From Candidatus Bathyarchaeota archaeon (GTDB lineage Archaea > Thermoproteota > Bathyarchaeia > Bathyarchaeales > Bathycorpusculaceae), in contig CAVYES010000006.1 of NCBI GenBank assembly GCA_963767735.1, positions 548,169 through 612,168 on the forward strand: a stretch of DNA of 64,000 nucleotides, written 5' to 3'. The notes below the pieces were generated by a model. It searched no databases. It worked only from the letters and a program-made list of their open reading frames with translations, and was not told the origin of the DNA. The position numbers were made by a program, and so were the translations under genes. Below are positions 24,848 through 39,249 of this stretch, piece by piece. Within the stretch, counting starts at the first letter, position 1, and each line of letters starts with the position of its first letter.

Positions 24848-24962
24848 TGGCGCCGGGAGGGGGATTTGAACCCCCGAGGCCCCGAGAGGCCACAAGCTGC
24901 TTGGTGCTTGCCTTAGGCAAACATCTCCAGGCTTGCTCCCTGCCTGGCTAGGAGACCCCGGC
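24848..24962 (-). tRNA. tRNA-Ser(GGA) with 26-nt canonical 37/38 intron (24899-24924), encoded CCA
   Basis: Acceptor GCCGGGG/TCCCGGC, anticodon arm CAAGC-CTGGAG^A-GCTTG, long variable arm, GGTTCAAATCC. Confidence 0.93.
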
Positions 24963-33436: not shown

Positions 33437-33762
33437 ATTTACATCAAACTGATAAGTTGCGCTTTAGAATTTAAGCATACAGAAGCTTATTCCATTTAAC
33501 GTATGGAGTTCACAAAGAAAAGCCACGTGCAAGAAATAGATGAAAGATTTAGGATTTGTTTTTTTTGAATCCTCAGGATAGGCTGTTCGAATATCTGCTT
33601 TAGGAAATTATCCATTTTTGTAAAATTGTTTTCGAGAGAGAACAGATGTGCATTTTCAATGGCGTTTTCCCGATAATAGTTGCATTTGACATCCTCTATA
33701 TTCAGAAGGGCGTTAGAGTTATAACAACCGATAAACTTACTGAGGTGCTGGACGGGAAATCA

Positions 33763-33870
33763 GGGCGAGTAAAGAGGGCCTAGAACAGACTCTTTCTCGA
33801 TGCTCAGTACGGATAGAGCACCAGCCTCCTAAGTTGGGGGTCGAGGGTTCAAATCCCTCCCCGCCCGCCA
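33763..33870 (+). tRNA. tRNA-Arg(CCT) with putative 30-nt intron at 9/10 (33772-33801)
   Basis: Exon 1 GGGCGAGTA; exon 2 GCTCAGTACGGATAGAGC-A-CCAGC-CTCCTAA-GTTGG...GGTTCAAATCC...CCCGCCCGCCA; BHB/BHL-like fold at the junctions. Confidence 0.8.
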
Positions 33871-33874
33871 CTAC

Positions 33875-34762
33875 TTGAACCCACTACCGTTTGAATTAAA
33901 AGGAATTAATATTGAAGAGTTTCAAAAGTTCCTTTTATTACATGTAAGAGAAGTTACAGCCCACTCATATTGCAAACGTTTGAAGGTCTTAATGAAGCTT
34001 GGAGATATCAATAATCCAGATAGAATTAAGACGCTAATTTGTACCTATAATGTGTCTGAAACAAGGAAAGAATTGCTGACCAATGCCTATGATTATTATG
34101 TTCAGTTCAAAGGCTTGACATGGATTAAGCCTAGATTTACCAGAGATGACGTTCCCATATTCTTACCACTTGAAGGCGAACTAGACGCATTAATAGCCAA
34201 CACTAGAACCAAGATGTCAACTTATCTCCAACTCCTTAAAGAAACTGGTGCAGATGCAGGTGAAGCTTGGAAGTTACGATGGATTGATATCAATATAACC
34301 AGCAGAACCGTAGCGATTTCACCGACCAAAAACCATAATGCAAGAACGTTACCCATTAGTGAAAATTTACTTTCAAGGTTGCTAAGGTTGCCTAGAGAAA
34401 ACTCATTAGTATTTGCTGGAAAAAACTTAGATAAATTCAGATGGTTATATGAAACTGCCCGAAACAAGTTAGCAATAAAACTTGACAATCCTCGAATCCA
34501 CGAAATAATGTTTAAGACATTCAGACATTGGAAAGCAACCCATGAATATTATCGAACAAAGGATATTCTGCATGTAAAATATATTCTTGGTCACAAGCGA
34601 ATCGAAAACACGTTAATTTATACCCACCTAGTCTATTTTGAGAGTGACGAATTCGTATGCAAGGTTGCCAAAACAGTAGAGGAAGCTACAGCATTAGTTG
34701 AAGCTGGTTATGAATTTGTCACTTCGATGGATGGTAATAAGCTATTCAAAAAGAGGAAGTAA
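33875..34762 (+). CDS. int: tyrosine recombinase, C-terminal fragment Int(C)
   Basis: ETGADAGEA, KTFRHWKAT, ILGHKRIENTLIYTHL. Confidence 0.9.
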   Translation: MNPLPFELKGINIEEFQKFLLLHVREVTAHSYCKRLKVLMKLGDINNPDRIKTLICTYNVSETRKELLTNAYDYYVQFKGLTWIKPRFTRDDVPIFLPLEGELDALIANTRTKMSTYLQLLKETGADAGEAWKLRWIDINITSRTVAISPTKNHNARTLPISENLLSRLLRLPRENSLVFAGKNLDKFRWLYETARNKLAIKLDNPRIHEIMFKTFRHWKATHEYYRTKDILHVKYILGHKRIENTLIYTHLVYFESDEFVCKVAKTVEEATALVEAGYEFVTSMDGNKLFKKRK

Positions 34763-34767
34763 ACCAT

Positions 34768-35021
34768 ATGATTGACTTTCTAGCCTTCATTATGGGCTTT
34801 TTTCTCATATGCCTTTTAGTTCTTATCATACTGGTTGGCTATCTTTTCTTTATAGGCTATTTAACGCTAAACCTTCTGAAAAAACCTATACTTATGTTGC
34901 TAAAGAAAGCGATAGAGAAATTGAAGAAAATTCAATTGAGGATAGTCAAGGCGATGGGTTAGTTCTATTCGATGACCCGCTATTCCCTGAAGAATTCGAT
35001 GAAGATGAAGACGAAGAATAA
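34768..35021 (+). CDS. membrane-anchored protein with acidic tail (probably one frameshifted gene)
   Basis: TM N-terminus in 34768 frame; acidic C-terminus in 34809 frame. Confidence 0.45.
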
Positions 35022-35692
35022 CTAACTTACCTTTTCCTTTGACTGAGGGTATATAGGGGTATAGTAAATAGAAAATAGGTAGTAGATATGAGGGTAGGTA
35101 TACCCAAGCTCATGAAAAGGTCAATAAGCGCAGACAGGGTATACACAACTACAGGAAAAGGTTAACCAAGAACAGACAACAAATAGACGAAAATGCCCAG
35201 CGGAACATGAATGTTCTTTCCAGCATTCAAAACCTATCCTTTAATCATGCTTATGGGGACTATCCGACAAGCGTTTTGGCTAAGGTGCAGAAGGGCACGG
35301 GAGTCCTGTGGGATTTGGTAAGAAGACTTTGGCGCATAGTACATAAGTCGATTTTTAGGAAAATTTGATTTTCCACTTTCAATTTCTTTCCAAGAGTCTT
35401 CAGCATGGTTTTAATGGGTTAATCTACTGGTTAAAGAATCAGTTATGGCATGGTTGACTTGGCAAGAGCTTAATCTGTACTCAGCAAAAGGGTCTTTTTC
35501 CAGAAAACTTGTCGTCTAAAGGAAATCGGGGTATGGCTCAGAAAATCGATGGCAGTATCTTTTTTTGTTTATTAAAGGCGAACATCCCTGTGGCTTTTTT
35601 GGTGCTTGCCTATATGTTCTCCCTACGCTTGCTTGAGCCTTATGCTGAGCAATCCATTACTCATGGACAAAAAGAGGAGTGGGTATATACCC

Positions 35693-37248
35693 TCATTGGA
35701 AAAGATAGGCGGAAGTTGATTGTGTCTTGTCAATGATTGGTGTTTGATTAAGTGGTTTTTCTGCTTCTTCCTTAGTTGATAGTTTAGATTCTTTGGTTTC
35801 TTTGTAAGTTATGGGATAATACTTTATTACCACTCCTTCTTTCTCTTCTTTGAGAAGTCCAGCGCAACAGAAATTCTTGAGCATTCCCCGCAAACGTTTG
35901 TCTGAACATCGTCTTTTCTTGTGATAGTAATATAAATTGTGGATTTCCGTTATTCTCAATCCCATATCAACATTGCATTCAGGCTCTAGCATCTTCCAAA
36001 CTTCAAATTCTTCTGGTGTCAAGCCTAAGCCATTGCACTTGAGTATTGGTTCGTAAATCTGCTTAGCCATTTCAATGTCTGTATAGTTAGCATAGATGCA
36101 GGCGTTATCAGGTGTACGTTCTCTGTGGTTAAAGTTTAGCATTGCCCATGCTTCTGCAAGTGCATAGAGTCTTGGGAAATCTCTTTGTGCTTTTGGTGCA
36201 AGGTTGTCAATGTTTGCCAAGAACCAGTCTTTCAGGTTTTCAATATCTGAAGCTTTGAATAATACTTTTCTAATCTTCGCTTGCTTAATCAGCTTTACAC
36301 GGTTCTTTAATCCGAATCGCGAAGGCTCTGTTTCGTACCAAACTTTGAAATCAGGGTTAATCATTTTTCTTGCTTGCAATTCAATCGCTTTTCCTATTTT
36401 CTCTGGATTGTCATTTGGACTCAACAAGTAGTTTCTGCTCGTTTCTTGCTCATCCATTTCTCCATACGCAGAACCAAAAAGAGCTGTGAAATATCCTTTA
36501 ATCAATACCTTTTTTGTCCTATGGCTTCCGCTGGTTGACTTGTCTGTTATAAGGTGGGTGCTGATTATGTTGTCATGGCTTAGCAGACTTCTGAGGCTTT
36601 GCAGTAATTCATAGTTTTTTAGGTCGTAGAATACCACTATCTTGTTTGACAAGTCTAAGAAGTATGCTGTATGTCTCTTCAAGTCGTTCCATTCTTCCCA
36701 CATTTCTTTTGCGTCTCCTTTCTTTGGAGCTTTTGAAATATCTATGGGTTGCAATGTGCGGTCATCTACAAGAATTGCATTTGGACTGTGGATTAATGCT
36801 CGGGCAGTTGCATCACTTATTTCAACTATGGTTTCTGAGTGTTCTTCACGGAAGTACCATAAGCATTCTTTCATGTTGTATGTTTTGCCTAATGATGATT
36901 CGCCAGTTAAGACAACGTTTCTTTGCTCTTCCTCTGTGAACGTTAGTAGGTTAACCAAGAACAATGGGATTTTCACATTCTTGTCGTCAAATACTGTGGT
37001 TGATAGCACTACATCTAAGTCTTGCAATGTTAGTTCATCGTTGGTGAATTTATCAAGTATTGGTTGCTTTTCTTGTTTTACTTCTTGGGGTTGAGTATCT
37101 TGATTGGAACCGATTTCAATGTTCTCACAGCTTGCAGGAATTACTATCTCTTGTTTGCTTTTACTATCTTGAGGAGTATTTCGGAAAGAACTTGGTTACC
37201 TATTGACTCCCCATTTTTAGATTCATTTAATATTTTTGTGGTTTCCAT
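35693..37248 (-). CDS. MCM-like AAA+ ATPase, putative replication helicase; frameshift near 37185
   Basis: Walker A GESSLGKT, VVFYD, EQETSR, RDFPRL, winged-helix-like end; frame open upstream of 37027. Confidence 0.65.
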
Positions 37249-37330
37249 ACATATCATCGTATAACTATATATGGCGTGGAAACAATAATACTGCACAGTT
37301 TTTGCGATTAACGCAACAGAGGTTTAGGAT

Positions 37331-38035
37331 GTGTCAGAACCAATCTGCCTGATAAGTGAAGAAGACCTAATAAAATATATCAGGGCTTTCAAAGAGAAGC
37401 ATGGAATATCTAACACAGACATTGGCGAAATATTAGGCATCCTTAATCATCCTCTTGACCGCTCTATAGTTTCTAAAATGCTCAAAGATGATTTTGATGA
37501 AGAGGGCAACAAGTCAATCAGACCTATATCCTACACAGAAGCCTATTCAATAATCAAGTTTTTACTTGAAAGAACATCACCCTTTCCAGATGAAAGCATA
37601 GAAACGATTTACACCCCTTCAAATCGAGTTGAAGATGAAGGAACGATATCTTCGGAAGACACAATCGAAACAGCGGCTAAAATAATGTTTGAGAAAGATT
37701 TCTCCCAGCTTCTGGTTAAAGATTCAACAACAAAAGAGTATATAGGGATTGTAACAGACTATACCGTTTTTAAAGAAATGCTATTCCCTTTTGAAGTTTC
37801 AAGTGATTGGTTAAAGACGCTAAAGAACAAAAAGGTTGGTTTATTGGTTGATAGACCACCAAGATTTCCTAAAAATGCCAAATTTATTGAAGTAGCTCAA
37901 GGATTAATGCATCACTATTCAGTAATGGTACAAGAAGATAAAGGGGAAATTGGAATAATAACAAGGTGGGATTTCCTCAAGTTGATTAAGAAAAAAAACT
38001 ATCGCATAGAGCCTTTTGAAGACTATAATATTTGA
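37331..38035 (+). CDS. HTH plus CBS-pair transcription regulator
   Basis: GISNTDIGEIL...RSIVSKM; FSQLLV, IGIVTD, GIITRWD. Confidence 0.8.
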   Translation: MSEPICLISEEDLIKYIRAFKEKHGISNTDIGEILGILNHPLDRSIVSKMLKDDFDEEGNKSIRPISYTEAYSIIKFLLERTSPFPDESIETIYTPSNRVEDEGTISSEDTIETAAKIMFEKDFSQLLVKDSTTKEYIGIVTDYTVFKEMLFPFEVSSDWLKTLKNKKVGLLVDRPPRFPKNAKFIEVAQGLMHHYSVMVQEDKGEIGIITRWDFLKLIKKKNYRIEPFEDYNI

Positions 38036-38345
38036 GCTGAATTGAGGATTGGTAAATAATTATACACCTTTTCACGACCATGTGTATACAGTCCCCTGCC
38101 TTTAACATAATTTGTTAATTCTAATAGCCACAGGTAGGGCGTCTTTACATTTTGTTGGCATTTGATGTGGATGTTGGCACTATATAATTTGAGACCTCAA
38201 CTCAAGATTAATTTCATTTGTGGTAGTTTTTGAAACTGCTAATATGGTGTGGCTGTTTAGGCTTTAGGGCTTATATTCAGTTAAGACGTAGGTCAAGAAA
38301 TTTAACTAAAGGGAAATCAAGAACCTTTTACTGAAAGCTTACTTG

Positions 38346-38873
38346 CTATTTCTTTGAAAGAGCCTCCAAGGTGTTCCATAAGCGTTTGATAGCCTTCATA
38401 CCCTGCCACCTACTAATTGGGTCATACCACCATGCGAACTCCTCCCATGGGGTTTCGCTGAATTCGGTTTCAGGAATATAAGCTCGGGGATCGTACCCCA
38501 CATACCATGAAGGGATAAGTATTATCCAACCTTCTGTTTTTGCGATAACACCGCCTATGACAGGTTCAAACGTTACTTCAAAACATTTTGCGGATGCAAA
38601 AAGTCTTTTCGATTGACCAAACACATACTCTGTCATATTGATTAAAATCTTGACGTTGTTTTCTTTAAACCACTCAACAACAGCTTCTTTTGATTCTTCA
38701 ATTCCAACACCTTTGATGAAAACGTCTTTTGTTGTCCTAGTCAAACAGCCAATCGCCCATGGTTTGAATATTAACTTCTTTTTTCTATTAGAGCTTATAG
38801 GTACAACTAAAAAGTAAGTTTTTAGGTAGATAGTGATTAAGAAATAAATTCTAACATAAGCATGTTCAAACAT
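38346..38873 (-). CDS. hypothetical protein (true start probably downstream)
   Basis: ORF only. Confidence 0.45.
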   Translation of the reverse strand: MFEHAYVRIYFLITIYLKTYFLVVPISSNRKKKLIFKPWAIGCLTRTTKDVFIKGVGIEESKEAVVEWFKENNVKILINMTEYVFGQSKRLFASAKCFEVTFEPVIGGVIAKTEGWIILIPSWYVGYDPRAYIPETEFSETPWEEFAWWYDPISRWQGMKAIKRLWNTLEALSKK

Positions 38874-38877
38874 TCCT

Positions 38878-39066
38878 CTATGTAGACTTTGAAGAATCCA
38901 GCTTATTCATGACTTGAGTGACTAATTTATAATCTTCACTTATGATTGGATAGTTCCGCTTAACTCTAAGTTTTAGCATTCTAAAGGTTTCATCAGTTAT
39001 GGGTTCACCGTTTAAGAACTTGGTTAATAACACCCTTTCCCTATCCGAAAAGATGGCTTTTTGCAT
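38878..39066 (-). CDS. 62-aa putative DNA-binding/regulatory protein of the element
   Basis: Small and helical; divergent from Int(N) across twin palindromes. Confidence 0.6.
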   Translation of the reverse strand: MQKAIFSDRERVLLTKFLNGEPITDETFRMLKLRVKRNYPIISEDYKLVTQVMNKLDSSKST

Positions 39067-39068
39067 GG

Positions 39069-39134
39069 CGTATCACATCAAGATACGCTTATAAGTACCT
39101 ATTGCTTATTAACTATTGTATCACTTAGAGATAC
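39069..39134. promoter_or_regulatory. twin GTATC-N7-GATAC operators flanking divergent TATA-like boxes
   Basis: CGTATCACATCAAGATACG (39069-39087) and GTATCACTTAGAGATAC (39118-39134). Confidence 0.65.
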
Positions 39135-39147
39135 GGAGAAACAAAAT

Positions 39148-39249
39148 ATGGAAAACCAACCAACCCTAAGTAATAGCCTTTCTTTGGCAGGGATTTCTTT
39201 TGCGAAAGAAAGTCCTCAGGGTCGAGGGTTCAAATCCCTCCCCGCCCGC
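39148..39249 (+). CDS. integrase N-terminal fragment Int(N) reading into the att core
   Basis: GGAG SD, MENQPTL...SPQGRGFKSLPAR, in frame with Int(C) across the repeat. Confidence 0.75.

Follow-up and report, generated by a model that had tools for sequence, protein, structure and literature searches.

A tRNA-Arg(CCU) gene of a Bathyarchaeia archaeon with a predicted bulge-helix-bulge intron at position 9/10 and an intron-associated leader copy of its acceptor strand

Non-canonical bulge-helix-bulge (BHB) introns are well described for archaeal tRNA genes, and include one at position 3/4 within the acceptor stem (Yoshihisa 2014, PMC4090602; Fujishima and Kanai 2014, PMC4033280). The positions named in the part of Yoshihisa 2014 drawn on here are 3/4, 20/21, 22/23, 25/26, 29/30, 30/31, 45/46, 53/54, 56/57 and 59/60, in an open-ended list that closes with 'etc.'; neither that list (PMC4090602) nor the other texts consulted here name 9/10. 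More recent sources describe standard annotation as overlooking a large number of non-canonical introns, many of them located in the D arm, and gain and loss as frequent among close relatives (PMC11291895; bioRxiv 10.64898/2026.10.13.758758). Candidates in tRNAscan-SE 2.0 are lengthened by 60 nt so that introns close to the 5′ or 3′ end are not lost (PMC8450103). A further class of systems, the split and permuted tRNAs, requires a leader or trailer to build the EndA substrate, according to the parts of the literature consulted (PMC4033280, PMC3218864).

Here we describe a locus from Bathyarchaeia that shares features with both groups. It lies in a 64,000-nt stretch of DNA, the whole of which is referred to below as the window. 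The host is a soil or sediment archaeon. The locus combines a tRNA-Arg(CCU) sequence, interrupted after its ninth nucleotide, with a short leader element that resembles the 5′ strand of the acceptor stem and that, among relatives, accompanies the intron.

Gene structure and detection

The features of the locus are collected in Table 1. The earlier note had placed nucleotides 1–9 of the tRNA 30 nt upstream of a cloverleaf that is complete from G10 onward, and this layout is correct to the coordinate; after the 30 nt the sequence continues with GCTCAG and runs through to the encoded CCA. In 11 intronless genes from other genomes, nucleotides 10–73 are identical to those in the window and are directly preceded by the same nine bases, a correspondence that, judged from the sequences, is far beyond chance. 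ARAGORN names three of these 11 orthologues tRNA-Arg(cct). Removal of the intron gives a canonical tRNA, in that exon 1 joined to exon 2 reproduces the 11 natural intronless genes. When the precursor was compared by BLAST with 40 relatives, the 3′ exon was found in the same genus; in six genomes (G001, G005, G012, G018, G021 and G008) it is 99–100% identical, with a match that begins exactly at G10. The six genes are intronless and read GGGCGAGTA-GCTCAG, or GGGTGAGTA instead in G008. The acceptor stem contains a mismatch, A6 opposite C67, which the intronless orthologues keep, so it is a property of the tRNA itself and no sign of decay. Taken on sequence evidence, positions 33763–33870 very probably represent a functional tRNA-Arg(CCU) gene, split at nucleotides 9/10 by a 30-nt archaeal BHB intron, with the splicing itself being what we infer. 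A trans-spliced, split or permuted tRNA was considered and ruled out, as the exons are collinear and lie 30 nt apart.

Table 1. Positions of the tRNA-Arg(CCU) locus and its surroundings, numbered from the first base of the window.
Feature	Position	Strand	Remarks
TATA-like box TTATAA, inside conserved GTTATAAC	33719..33724	+	presumed archaeal promoter
Leader copy GGACGGG	33750..33756	+	6 nt upstream of G1
Spacer AAATCA, from leader copy to G1	33757..33762	+	variable sequence, 3–9 nt in relatives
Exon 1, tRNA nt 1–9, GGGCGAGTA (GGGCGAG U8 A9)	33763..33771	+	sequence reading, orthologue comparison
Predicted BHB intron, 30 nt, between nt 9 and 10	33772..33801	+	register table, alignment, folds
Exon 2, nt 10–76, G10 to CCA; starts GCTCAGTACGGATAGAGC	33802..33870	+	sequence, Rfam, orthologues
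Exon 2 contents: D arm, CCU anticodon arm, 5-nt variable loop, T arm	within 33802..33870	+	
3′ acceptor strand	33860..33866	+	
G73	33867	+	
Encoded CCA	33868..33870	+	
Central helix H, CGAG (nt 4–7) with CUCG (intron nt 25–28)	33766..33769 with 33796..33799		4 of 4 pairs
Inner helix h2, AGAGGG with CUCUUU	33773..33778 with 33790..33795		6 bp, 2 G-U; adjoins H
Outer helix h1, G1–G3 able to pair with C11–C13	33763..33765 with 33803..33805		3 bp
Left attachment site of integrated element, 31 nt of tRNA 3′ part	33838..33868	+	exact repeat at 39219–39249

The gene is poorly visible to the scanners used. The Rfam tRNA model covers only 33802–33859, corresponding to model positions 10–63 of 71 and a score of 40.5 bits, and this locus is among the partial ones of the 41 tRNA matches that Rfam gives over the genome. 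ARAGORN called no tRNA in the window; with introns allowed, it reported 42 genes over the whole 3.04-Mb, 10-contig assembly, none of them an Arg(CCT) gene. It likewise misses two intron-bearing relatives, L002 and L020. The expectation that standard scanners could miss the gene is thus borne out, by a missing call in ARAGORN and a partial match in Rfam. It had also been asked whether this is the only Arg(CCT) gene, and it is the only one detected in the 95%-complete assembly: ARAGORN with introns allowed and BLAST gave no second gene, and a custom scan that looked for a CCT anticodon arm with a T arm after it returned this locus alone in the genome. The sole AGG-specific decoding tRNA detected in this genome is invisible to ARAGORN and partial in Rfam, so that surveys of Bathyarchaeia genomes would list the gene as missing. 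Some ten more anticodons are likewise unaccounted for in this genome.

An integrated element uses the 3′ part of the gene as its left attachment site (Table 1). This is part of the genomic context and lies outside the splicing unit.

The splice motif, its conservation and the splicing enzymes

In the BHB motif (hBHBh′ or a relaxed form), a 4-bp helix lies between two 3-nt bulges on opposite strands, and each strand is cut after the second base of its bulge. Read in strict register, the gene in the window has a complete hBHBh′ motif, the BHB strands of which are exon nucleotides 4–7 and the intron's 3′ end. U8 A9 ^ A makes up the 5′ bulge, and A U ^ G10 makes up the 3′ one. Cuts placed by the EndA rule, two bases 3′ of the helix on each strand, had been predicted to restore the tRNA, and they would indeed yield the tRNA that is encoded by the intronless relatives. 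The fold drawn in the earlier note stands in its 4-bp CGAG/CUCG helix and its bulges, but the UU internal loop that it included is unneeded, as AGAGGG/CUCUUU pairs directly beside H.

To describe conservation, 18 precursors were tabulated, anchored on their splice sites. In strict register the bulges UA^N and AN^G occur in 18/18 relatives. All four pairs of H are formed in 11 relatives, which have GGGCGAG exons together with ...CUCGAN; the other seven have GGGCGGG or GGACGGG exons together with ...ACCGAN, and form three of the four pairs plus G7.A. The pair 6:N-4 is accordingly A-U in 11 and G-C in seven of the 18. In a MAFFT alignment (A1), 91.1% of cells are paired, against 47.5–61.7% when the partners are slid by 1–3 columns, and four pairs have changed on both sides, in 15 cells. 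The covariation score is 0.203, whereas shuffles average 0.149 and none of 500 attains the observed value, a count that is no probability because the relatives share descent; more weight falls on the slid controls and on the double changes. Fold z-scores for the precursor in the window are unremarkable (-1.33 and -1.43). The earlier note had tied its reading to conservation of the helix in relatives, and the BHB helices are kept there through compensatory changes.

The enzymes expected for such a substrate are encoded in the same genome, which contains two genes with the EndA domain PF01974 and an RtcB gene (589 bits). One EndA ORF, of at least 170 aa at the end of contig C2, shows a Tyr...His...Lys pattern, and the other, of 189 aa on contig C4, has Thr at the His position. 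Given the roles that we take these three residues to have, the C2 protein would be the catalytic and the C4 protein the structural subunit, which suggests an (alpha-beta)2-like enzyme. The (alpha-beta)2 arrangement is the one with broad specificity. TACK archaea with an EndA of relaxed specificity have non-canonical introns, as the earlier note stated, and the genome agrees with this, being that of a TACK-type host with RtcB and two EndA-domain genes, one of them without the His.

The intron is not confined to one lineage. It is present in three of the families sampled within the order. For a wider view, a class-wide pattern was used that consists of exon 1, 20–32 nt, CGAN and GCYYAG, with the leader copy forming no part of it; of 401 Bathyarchaeia genomes drawn from the whole class, 40 gave a match. 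Inspection of 30 matched loci showed 26 to be tRNA-Arg genes (CCU or CCG) and four to be chance matches in non-tRNA sequence. In family f7, where 13/18 genomes matched, the Arg(CCU) gene has an additional intron near the anticodon stem. In families f35 (genus g115) and f30 (genus g90), the 9/10 intron is found in Arg(CCG), with the anticodon loop CUCCGGA, and in g115 H is perfect (CGGG/CCCG). Its occurrence in several families and isoacceptors indicates that the 9/10 intron is old or shared between Arg isoacceptors, and no assembly quirk. Other congeners have a D-loop intron of about 30–70 nt instead (10 of the sampled genomes). One gene is thus seen in three states among close relatives, with a 9/10 intron, with a D-loop intron or with none, and offers material for a study of intron gain and loss. 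A T-arm-like segment was also considered as a general trait of the congeners' D-loop introns and was rejected, as only one of 18 parsed introns contains a long exact copy (16 nt).

A leader copy of the acceptor strand in tRNA-Arg and tRNA-Ser

Shortly upstream of G1 lies the heptamer GGACGGG. Compared with a perfect Watson-Crick complement of CCCGCCC, the 3′ acceptor strand, it agrees at 6/7 positions. The copy of this genus has its mismatch at an A opposite C70. Further upstream, the end of the TATA-like box is found 35–37 nt upstream of G1 in 16/16 of the 9/10-intron loci that carry GTTATAAC. From the usual archaeal spacing between TATA box and start site, the box is presumed to be the promoter, and transcription would begin two or three bases 5′ of the copy, at about 15 nt upstream of G1. 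Neither full-text literature searches nor the texts consulted here yielded any mention of an acceptor-strand copy in a tRNA leader.

The leader copy was scored as the best 7-mer identity to the complement of nucleotides 66–72, at most 30 nt upstream, with a threshold of at least 6/7. When G-U pairs are allowed, 6/7 pairing 7-mers are found in the 40-nt leaders of 6/35 ordinary tRNAs of the same genome, which is too common to be useful, so Watson-Crick identity was used for the counts. From at least 133 distinct Arg(CCU) sequences, the 127 with enough upstream DNA were scored, three of which lack a recognisable exon 1. Among the matches listed, the copy is present in 19/19 genes with the 9/10 intron, in 1/54 intronless genes and in 0/51 genes with a D-loop or later intron.

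Much of the 19/19 represents a single orthologous lineage, and the relatives are not independent. Since shared descent inflates these counts, the evidently orthologous loci that share GTTATAAC at 35–37 nt upstream of G1 were used as an internal control. Here the copy is found in 16/16 loci with the 9/10 intron and in 0/9 without it, of which seven have a later intron (one doubtful) and two are intronless. At two of these, L081 and L010, the flanks are unchanged and the seven bases carry three substitutions (in L081, GGACGGG has become GGATGAA).

The 26 tRNA loci inspected across the class show the copy too, as GGGCGGG, GGUCGGG, GGGCGGA or UGGCGGG, or as a 10-nt tandem duplication; that of L199, UGGCGGA, reaches 5/7. 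The association with the intron is not a strict one, as L074 is an intronless gene with a perfect leader copy. In its leader it is similar to L127, a gene with the intron, and this case would most simply be explained by a recent loss of the intron.

Within tRNA-Arg, the helix between leader copy and acceptor strand shows no covariation in alignment A1 (three pairs are constant, and four depart through unpaired cells only), because the 3′ strand CCCGCCC is invariant. A second gene with the same layout is informative in this respect. A genome-wide search for two copies separated by 9–22 nt, with a T arm and a matching 3′ strand downstream of them, gave four matches: Arg(CCT), Ser(TGA), an intronless Arg(TCT) with a 6/7 copy, and one that is likely noise. 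The tRNA-Ser(UGA) gene, on contig C4 of the same genome, is another of the partial Rfam matches. It is ordered as a leader copy GCTGGGA, a 6-nt spacer, the exon GCCGGGAT, a 30-nt intron and GGCAGAGTGG..., and by the same rule its intron lies at 8/9, with CGGG/CCCG as H and AUGC/GCAU as inner helix. Among 29 Ser(UGA) loci from relatives, three have the 8/9 intron and 26 are intronless. The Ser acceptor strand (GCUGGGA or GCCGGGA) is copied at 6–7 of 7 positions in 3/3 of the intron-bearing genes and in 0/26 of the intronless ones, which score at most 4/7. As the copy in Ser(UGA) matches the Ser acceptor strand, the copy tracks the acceptor sequence of its own tRNA. This match is the nearest available substitute for covariation, so that the evidence for the proposed helix consists of conservation and of a match between genes.

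A proposed role for the leader, and comparison with known systems

The predicted BHB creates a folding conflict, as nucleotides 4–7 (in H) and 1–3 (in the outer helix) are needed by the acceptor stem too. The MFE structure of the precursor in the window reflects this conflict: when computed without the leader, nucleotides 1–4 pair with 69–72 and H is reduced to three pairs, and when the leader is included, its partner is the 3′ acceptor strand and H forms in full, with four pairs. In partition-function calculations, pairs 1–4:69–72 have a mean probability of 0.00–0.03 with the native leader in 17/17 precursors, of 0.84–1.00 without a leader in 16/17, and of 0.05–0.88 with shuffled leaders. Pairing of the copy in the expected register is predicted at 0.85–1.00 in relatives of the GGGCGGG type and at 0.01–0.53 in the genus of the window, several members of which give values of 0.07 or less; in this genus a CCCG repeat at the 3′ end permits other registers. 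For the GGGCGGG-type relatives RNAfold gives a probability of about 0 for strict H, as its preference is for a longer helix that contains a single bulged base, and their folds were left out as support for the BHB. The thermodynamic predictions are, overall, mixed.

A sequence of events that would accommodate these observations is as follows. The primary transcript would begin about 15 nt upstream of G1 and include GGACGGG. In the precursor, nucleotides 4–7 (CGAG) would pair with intron nucleotides 25–28 (CUCG) to form the 4-bp central helix, with U8-A9-A and A-U-G10 as the two 3-nt bulges, and with flanking helices contributed by the intron hairpin AGAGGG/CUCUUU and by G1–G3:C11–C13. EndA would cut both strands after the second bulge base, and RtcB would ligate A9 to G10, joining GGGCGAGUA to GCUCAGUACGG. 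The acceptor stem and D arm would fold afterwards, and RNase P would remove the leader. As the BHB uses the 5′ acceptor strand itself, the leader copy most likely has nucleotides 66–72 as its partner, and that it pairs with them in the precursor, leaving nucleotides 1–7 free for the BHB, is a reading to which we give an even chance or slightly better. If the copy holds nucleotides 66–72, splicing would precede 5′ trimming. We infer that the leader copy is transcribed, that it pairs and that processing runs in this order.

The idea can be put more broadly. A surrogate acceptor strand encoded in the leader could be a general cis helper for archaeal introns that borrow the 5′ acceptor strand, a proposal whose chances we rate as evenly balanced. 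Such a surrogate would hold nucleotides 66–72, and hence the stack of acceptor stem and T arm, while EndA cuts; it would enforce splicing first and 5′ trimming later, and the real strand would displace it after ligation.

Several other readings of the locus have to be weighed against this one. The intron may be real and the copy without a role in splicing, being either left over from the duplication or insertion by which the intron arose or a passively inherited piece of leader. We consider this possible, though doubtful. The missing covariation of the copy with its proposed partner in tRNA-Arg would fit it, as would the retained copy of the intronless L074, the 6/7 copy of the intronless Arg(TCT) in the same genome, and two relatives in which the 10-nt tandem duplication, GGGCGGGTAT then GGGCGGGTA, has the look of a duplication scar. 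A neutral relic is expected to decay, however, yet 6–7 of 7 positions are kept across several families beside a spacer that varies, while the copy has decayed in 9/9 orthologous loci without the 9/10 intron; a copy of different sequence also accompanies the 8/9 intron in 3/3 tRNA-Ser(UGA) genes. The copy could also be functional in another way that does not free nucleotides 1–7, for instance as a clamp between leader and 3′ end, as an element that positions or delays RNase P, or as an initially transcribed, promoter-proximal element. Its tightly conserved distance to the TATA-like box is consistent with this, and so are the predicted leader pairing of the precursor in the window, which reaches over G73 and CCA, and the leaders of several relatives that pair with the 3′-end CCCG repeat in another register. 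But a general end clamp or promoter element would not be expected to occur solely where an intron draws on the acceptor strand, and the copy is absent from 26/26 intronless Ser(UGA) genes and, among the matches listed, from 104/105 Arg(CCU) genes with no intron or with only a D-loop or later one, making this account unlikely.

Two readings would change the interpretation of the gene itself. The silence of standard scanners, the A6.C67 mismatch and a mobile element at the 3′ end could all be taken to mark a disrupted, non-functional pseudogene in which the insertion is no spliced intron. This is very improbable for the sole Arg(CCT) gene detected, both exons of which are 100% identical to those of intact orthologues, A6.C67 included; moreover, the BHB geometry of the insert is kept through compensatory changes across families, and the integrated element regenerates the 3′ end of the tRNA. 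Alternatively, the distal GGACGGG might be the true 5′ acceptor strand, with a different exon-intron structure. Its pairing with CCCGCCC equals that of the proximal strand, both having one mismatch, and GGACGGG is the exon in some lineages (L044 and L124). Such a structure is hardly credible, since it would require a second intron without a BHB and the intronless orthologues of the same genus read GGGCGAGUA-GCUC. The distal copy is never followed by U8, with A or G in its place, and on the missing U8 it was ruled out as a real exon.

Returning to the leader as a surrogate strand, the copy looks like a solution to the folding conflict of the acceptor stem, being kept with the intron and lost without it. 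If the proposal is true, it would identify a general, unrecognised element of pre-tRNA architecture, here in Bathyarchaeia tRNA-Arg(CCU/CCG) and tRNA-Ser(UGA), and would explain the persistence of introns at 7/8 to 9/10. It also supplies a rule, open to testing, on which step of pre-tRNA processing comes first, and two acceptor-strand copies a few bases apart could serve as a signature for hidden introns close to the 5′ end.

Compared with known systems, the gene is most like the archaeal non-canonical BHB introns of Thermoproteales, Thaumarchaeota and others: its intron is short and lies outside the anticodon loop, the predicted splice sites fall in two 3-nt bulges around a 4-bp helix, and the genome of its host, like those of the hosts of such introns, encodes a two-paralogue EndA together with RtcB. 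It differs from the named examples in its Bathyarchaeia host, in a BHB that takes four bases of the 5′ acceptor strand, and in its conserved leader copy. The bioRxiv preprint cited above (10.64898/2026.10.13.758758) concerns a different lineage, and in the portion of its text considered here the word 'leader' occurs 0 times and 'acceptor' twice. To the split and permuted tRNAs of Nanoarchaeum equitans, Caldivirga, Staphylothermus and Thermofilum pendens, the likeness is that sequence from outside the tRNA takes part in building the EndA substrate. In those systems the flanks pair with each other into the BHB itself, in trans or after permutation, whereas the Arg(CCU) gene described here is contiguous, exon and intron together make up its BHB, and the proposed partner of the leader is the 3′ acceptor strand. 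What this locus and its relatives contribute is a leader copy of the acceptor strand in Bathyarchaeia tRNA-Arg and tRNA-Ser, together with orthologous loci without the intron that serve as an internal control. Set beside these systems, the 9/10 tRNA-Arg(CCU) appears from sequence comparison to be a genuine, conserved BHB-intron gene, with an intron-tied leader element that probably assists its splicing.

Other interrupted tRNA genes and their leader copies

The combination of a 5′-proximal intron and a leader copy, meaning a near-copy of the 5′ acceptor strand a few nucleotides upstream of G1, is also found at tRNA-Ser(UGA) of the same genome, where a 30-nt intron with a strict bulge-helix-bulge (two 3-nt bulges around a 4-bp helix) lies between nucleotides 8 and 9 and the leader copy, GCTGGGA, is of the Ser gene's own acceptor strand. 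We see the same layout in two relatives belonging to other families, while 26 relatives carry a tRNA-Ser(UGA) with neither intron nor leader copy.

Leader copies, or sequences like them, also stand beside some intronless genes. A tRNA-Arg(CCU) gene from a relative (L074) has a perfect copy, GGGCGGG, 6 nt upstream, and its leader is similar to that of the intron-bearing relative's locus L127; L074 probably represents a recent and precise loss of the intron. At the intronless tRNA-Arg(TCT) of the genome under study, GTGCCCG lies 5 nt upstream of G1 with 6/7 identity to the 5′ acceptor strand, which may reflect chance or the vestige of a lost 5′-proximal intron.

Features located in the window and on other contigs of the same genome
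Feature	Sequence	Position	Strand	Remarks
tRNA-Ser(GGA)	window	24848-24962	minus	26-nt intron in anticodon loop
Integrated element	window	33838-39249		about 5.4 kb, at 3′ end of tRNA-Arg(CCU)
Direct repeat	window	33838-33868 and 39219-39249		last 31 nt of tRNA-Arg(CCU) body and exact second copy
Tyrosine recombinase gene	window	start 33875		immediately after tRNA-Arg(CCU); PF00589, E 5.5e-15
tRNA-Ser(UGA) (L154/L155)	contig C4	~561350-561495		30-nt intron at 8/9
tRNA-Arg(TCT)	contig C7	305904-305978	minus	intronless
tRNA-like fragment	contig C7	287459-287512
tRNA-like fragment	contig C5	397199-397248
tRNA-like fragment	contig C5	108648-108704

tRNA genes unlisted by scanners, and tRNA-like fragments

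When Rfam was run on the window at gathering thresholds, the tRNA-Ser(GGA) gene was absent from the output; searching the whole genome with Rfam did recover it, at 34.4 bits, as did ARAGORN in its intron-permitting mode. Across the whole genome, ARAGORN in this mode found just two genes with a CAT anticodon, and its list lacks Phe, Tyr, Gly(TCC), Glu(CTC), Val(CAC), Leu(CAA/TAA/CAG) and Ser(GCT) tRNAs altogether; several of its calls look doubtful, such as one with a 287-nt 'intron'. The assembly is 95% complete, and it probably conceals further tRNA genes that are heavily interrupted. The three tRNA-like fragments are 3′ halves or truncated bodies that resemble Arg(TCT) and other tRNAs, and in none can a 5′ strand be recognised; they may be what is left of old attachment sites, or else additional disrupted genes.

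Integration and D-loop introns at tRNA-Arg(CCU)

The element integrated at the 3′ end of tRNA-Arg(CCU) carries among its cargo a gene for a CBS-domain protein and a 444-aa ORF for which a Pfam search gave no match. Since partial copies of the 3′ end lie within 1-20 kb of the gene in several congeners, tRNA-Arg(CCU) looks, from these sequences, like a regular integration site within its own genus.

Many congeners (L010-L019 and about 40 further loci) have a tRNA-Arg(CCU) without the 9/10 intron but with a 30-70-nt intron in the D-loop, inserted after GGAT. The type seen at locus L012 contains an exact 16-nt copy of nucleotides 42-57 of its own tRNA, comprising the variable loop and the 5′ strand of the T-stem. 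A long exact copy occurs in only one of the 18 introns parsed, and looser versions lie inside several other D-loop introns of congeners.
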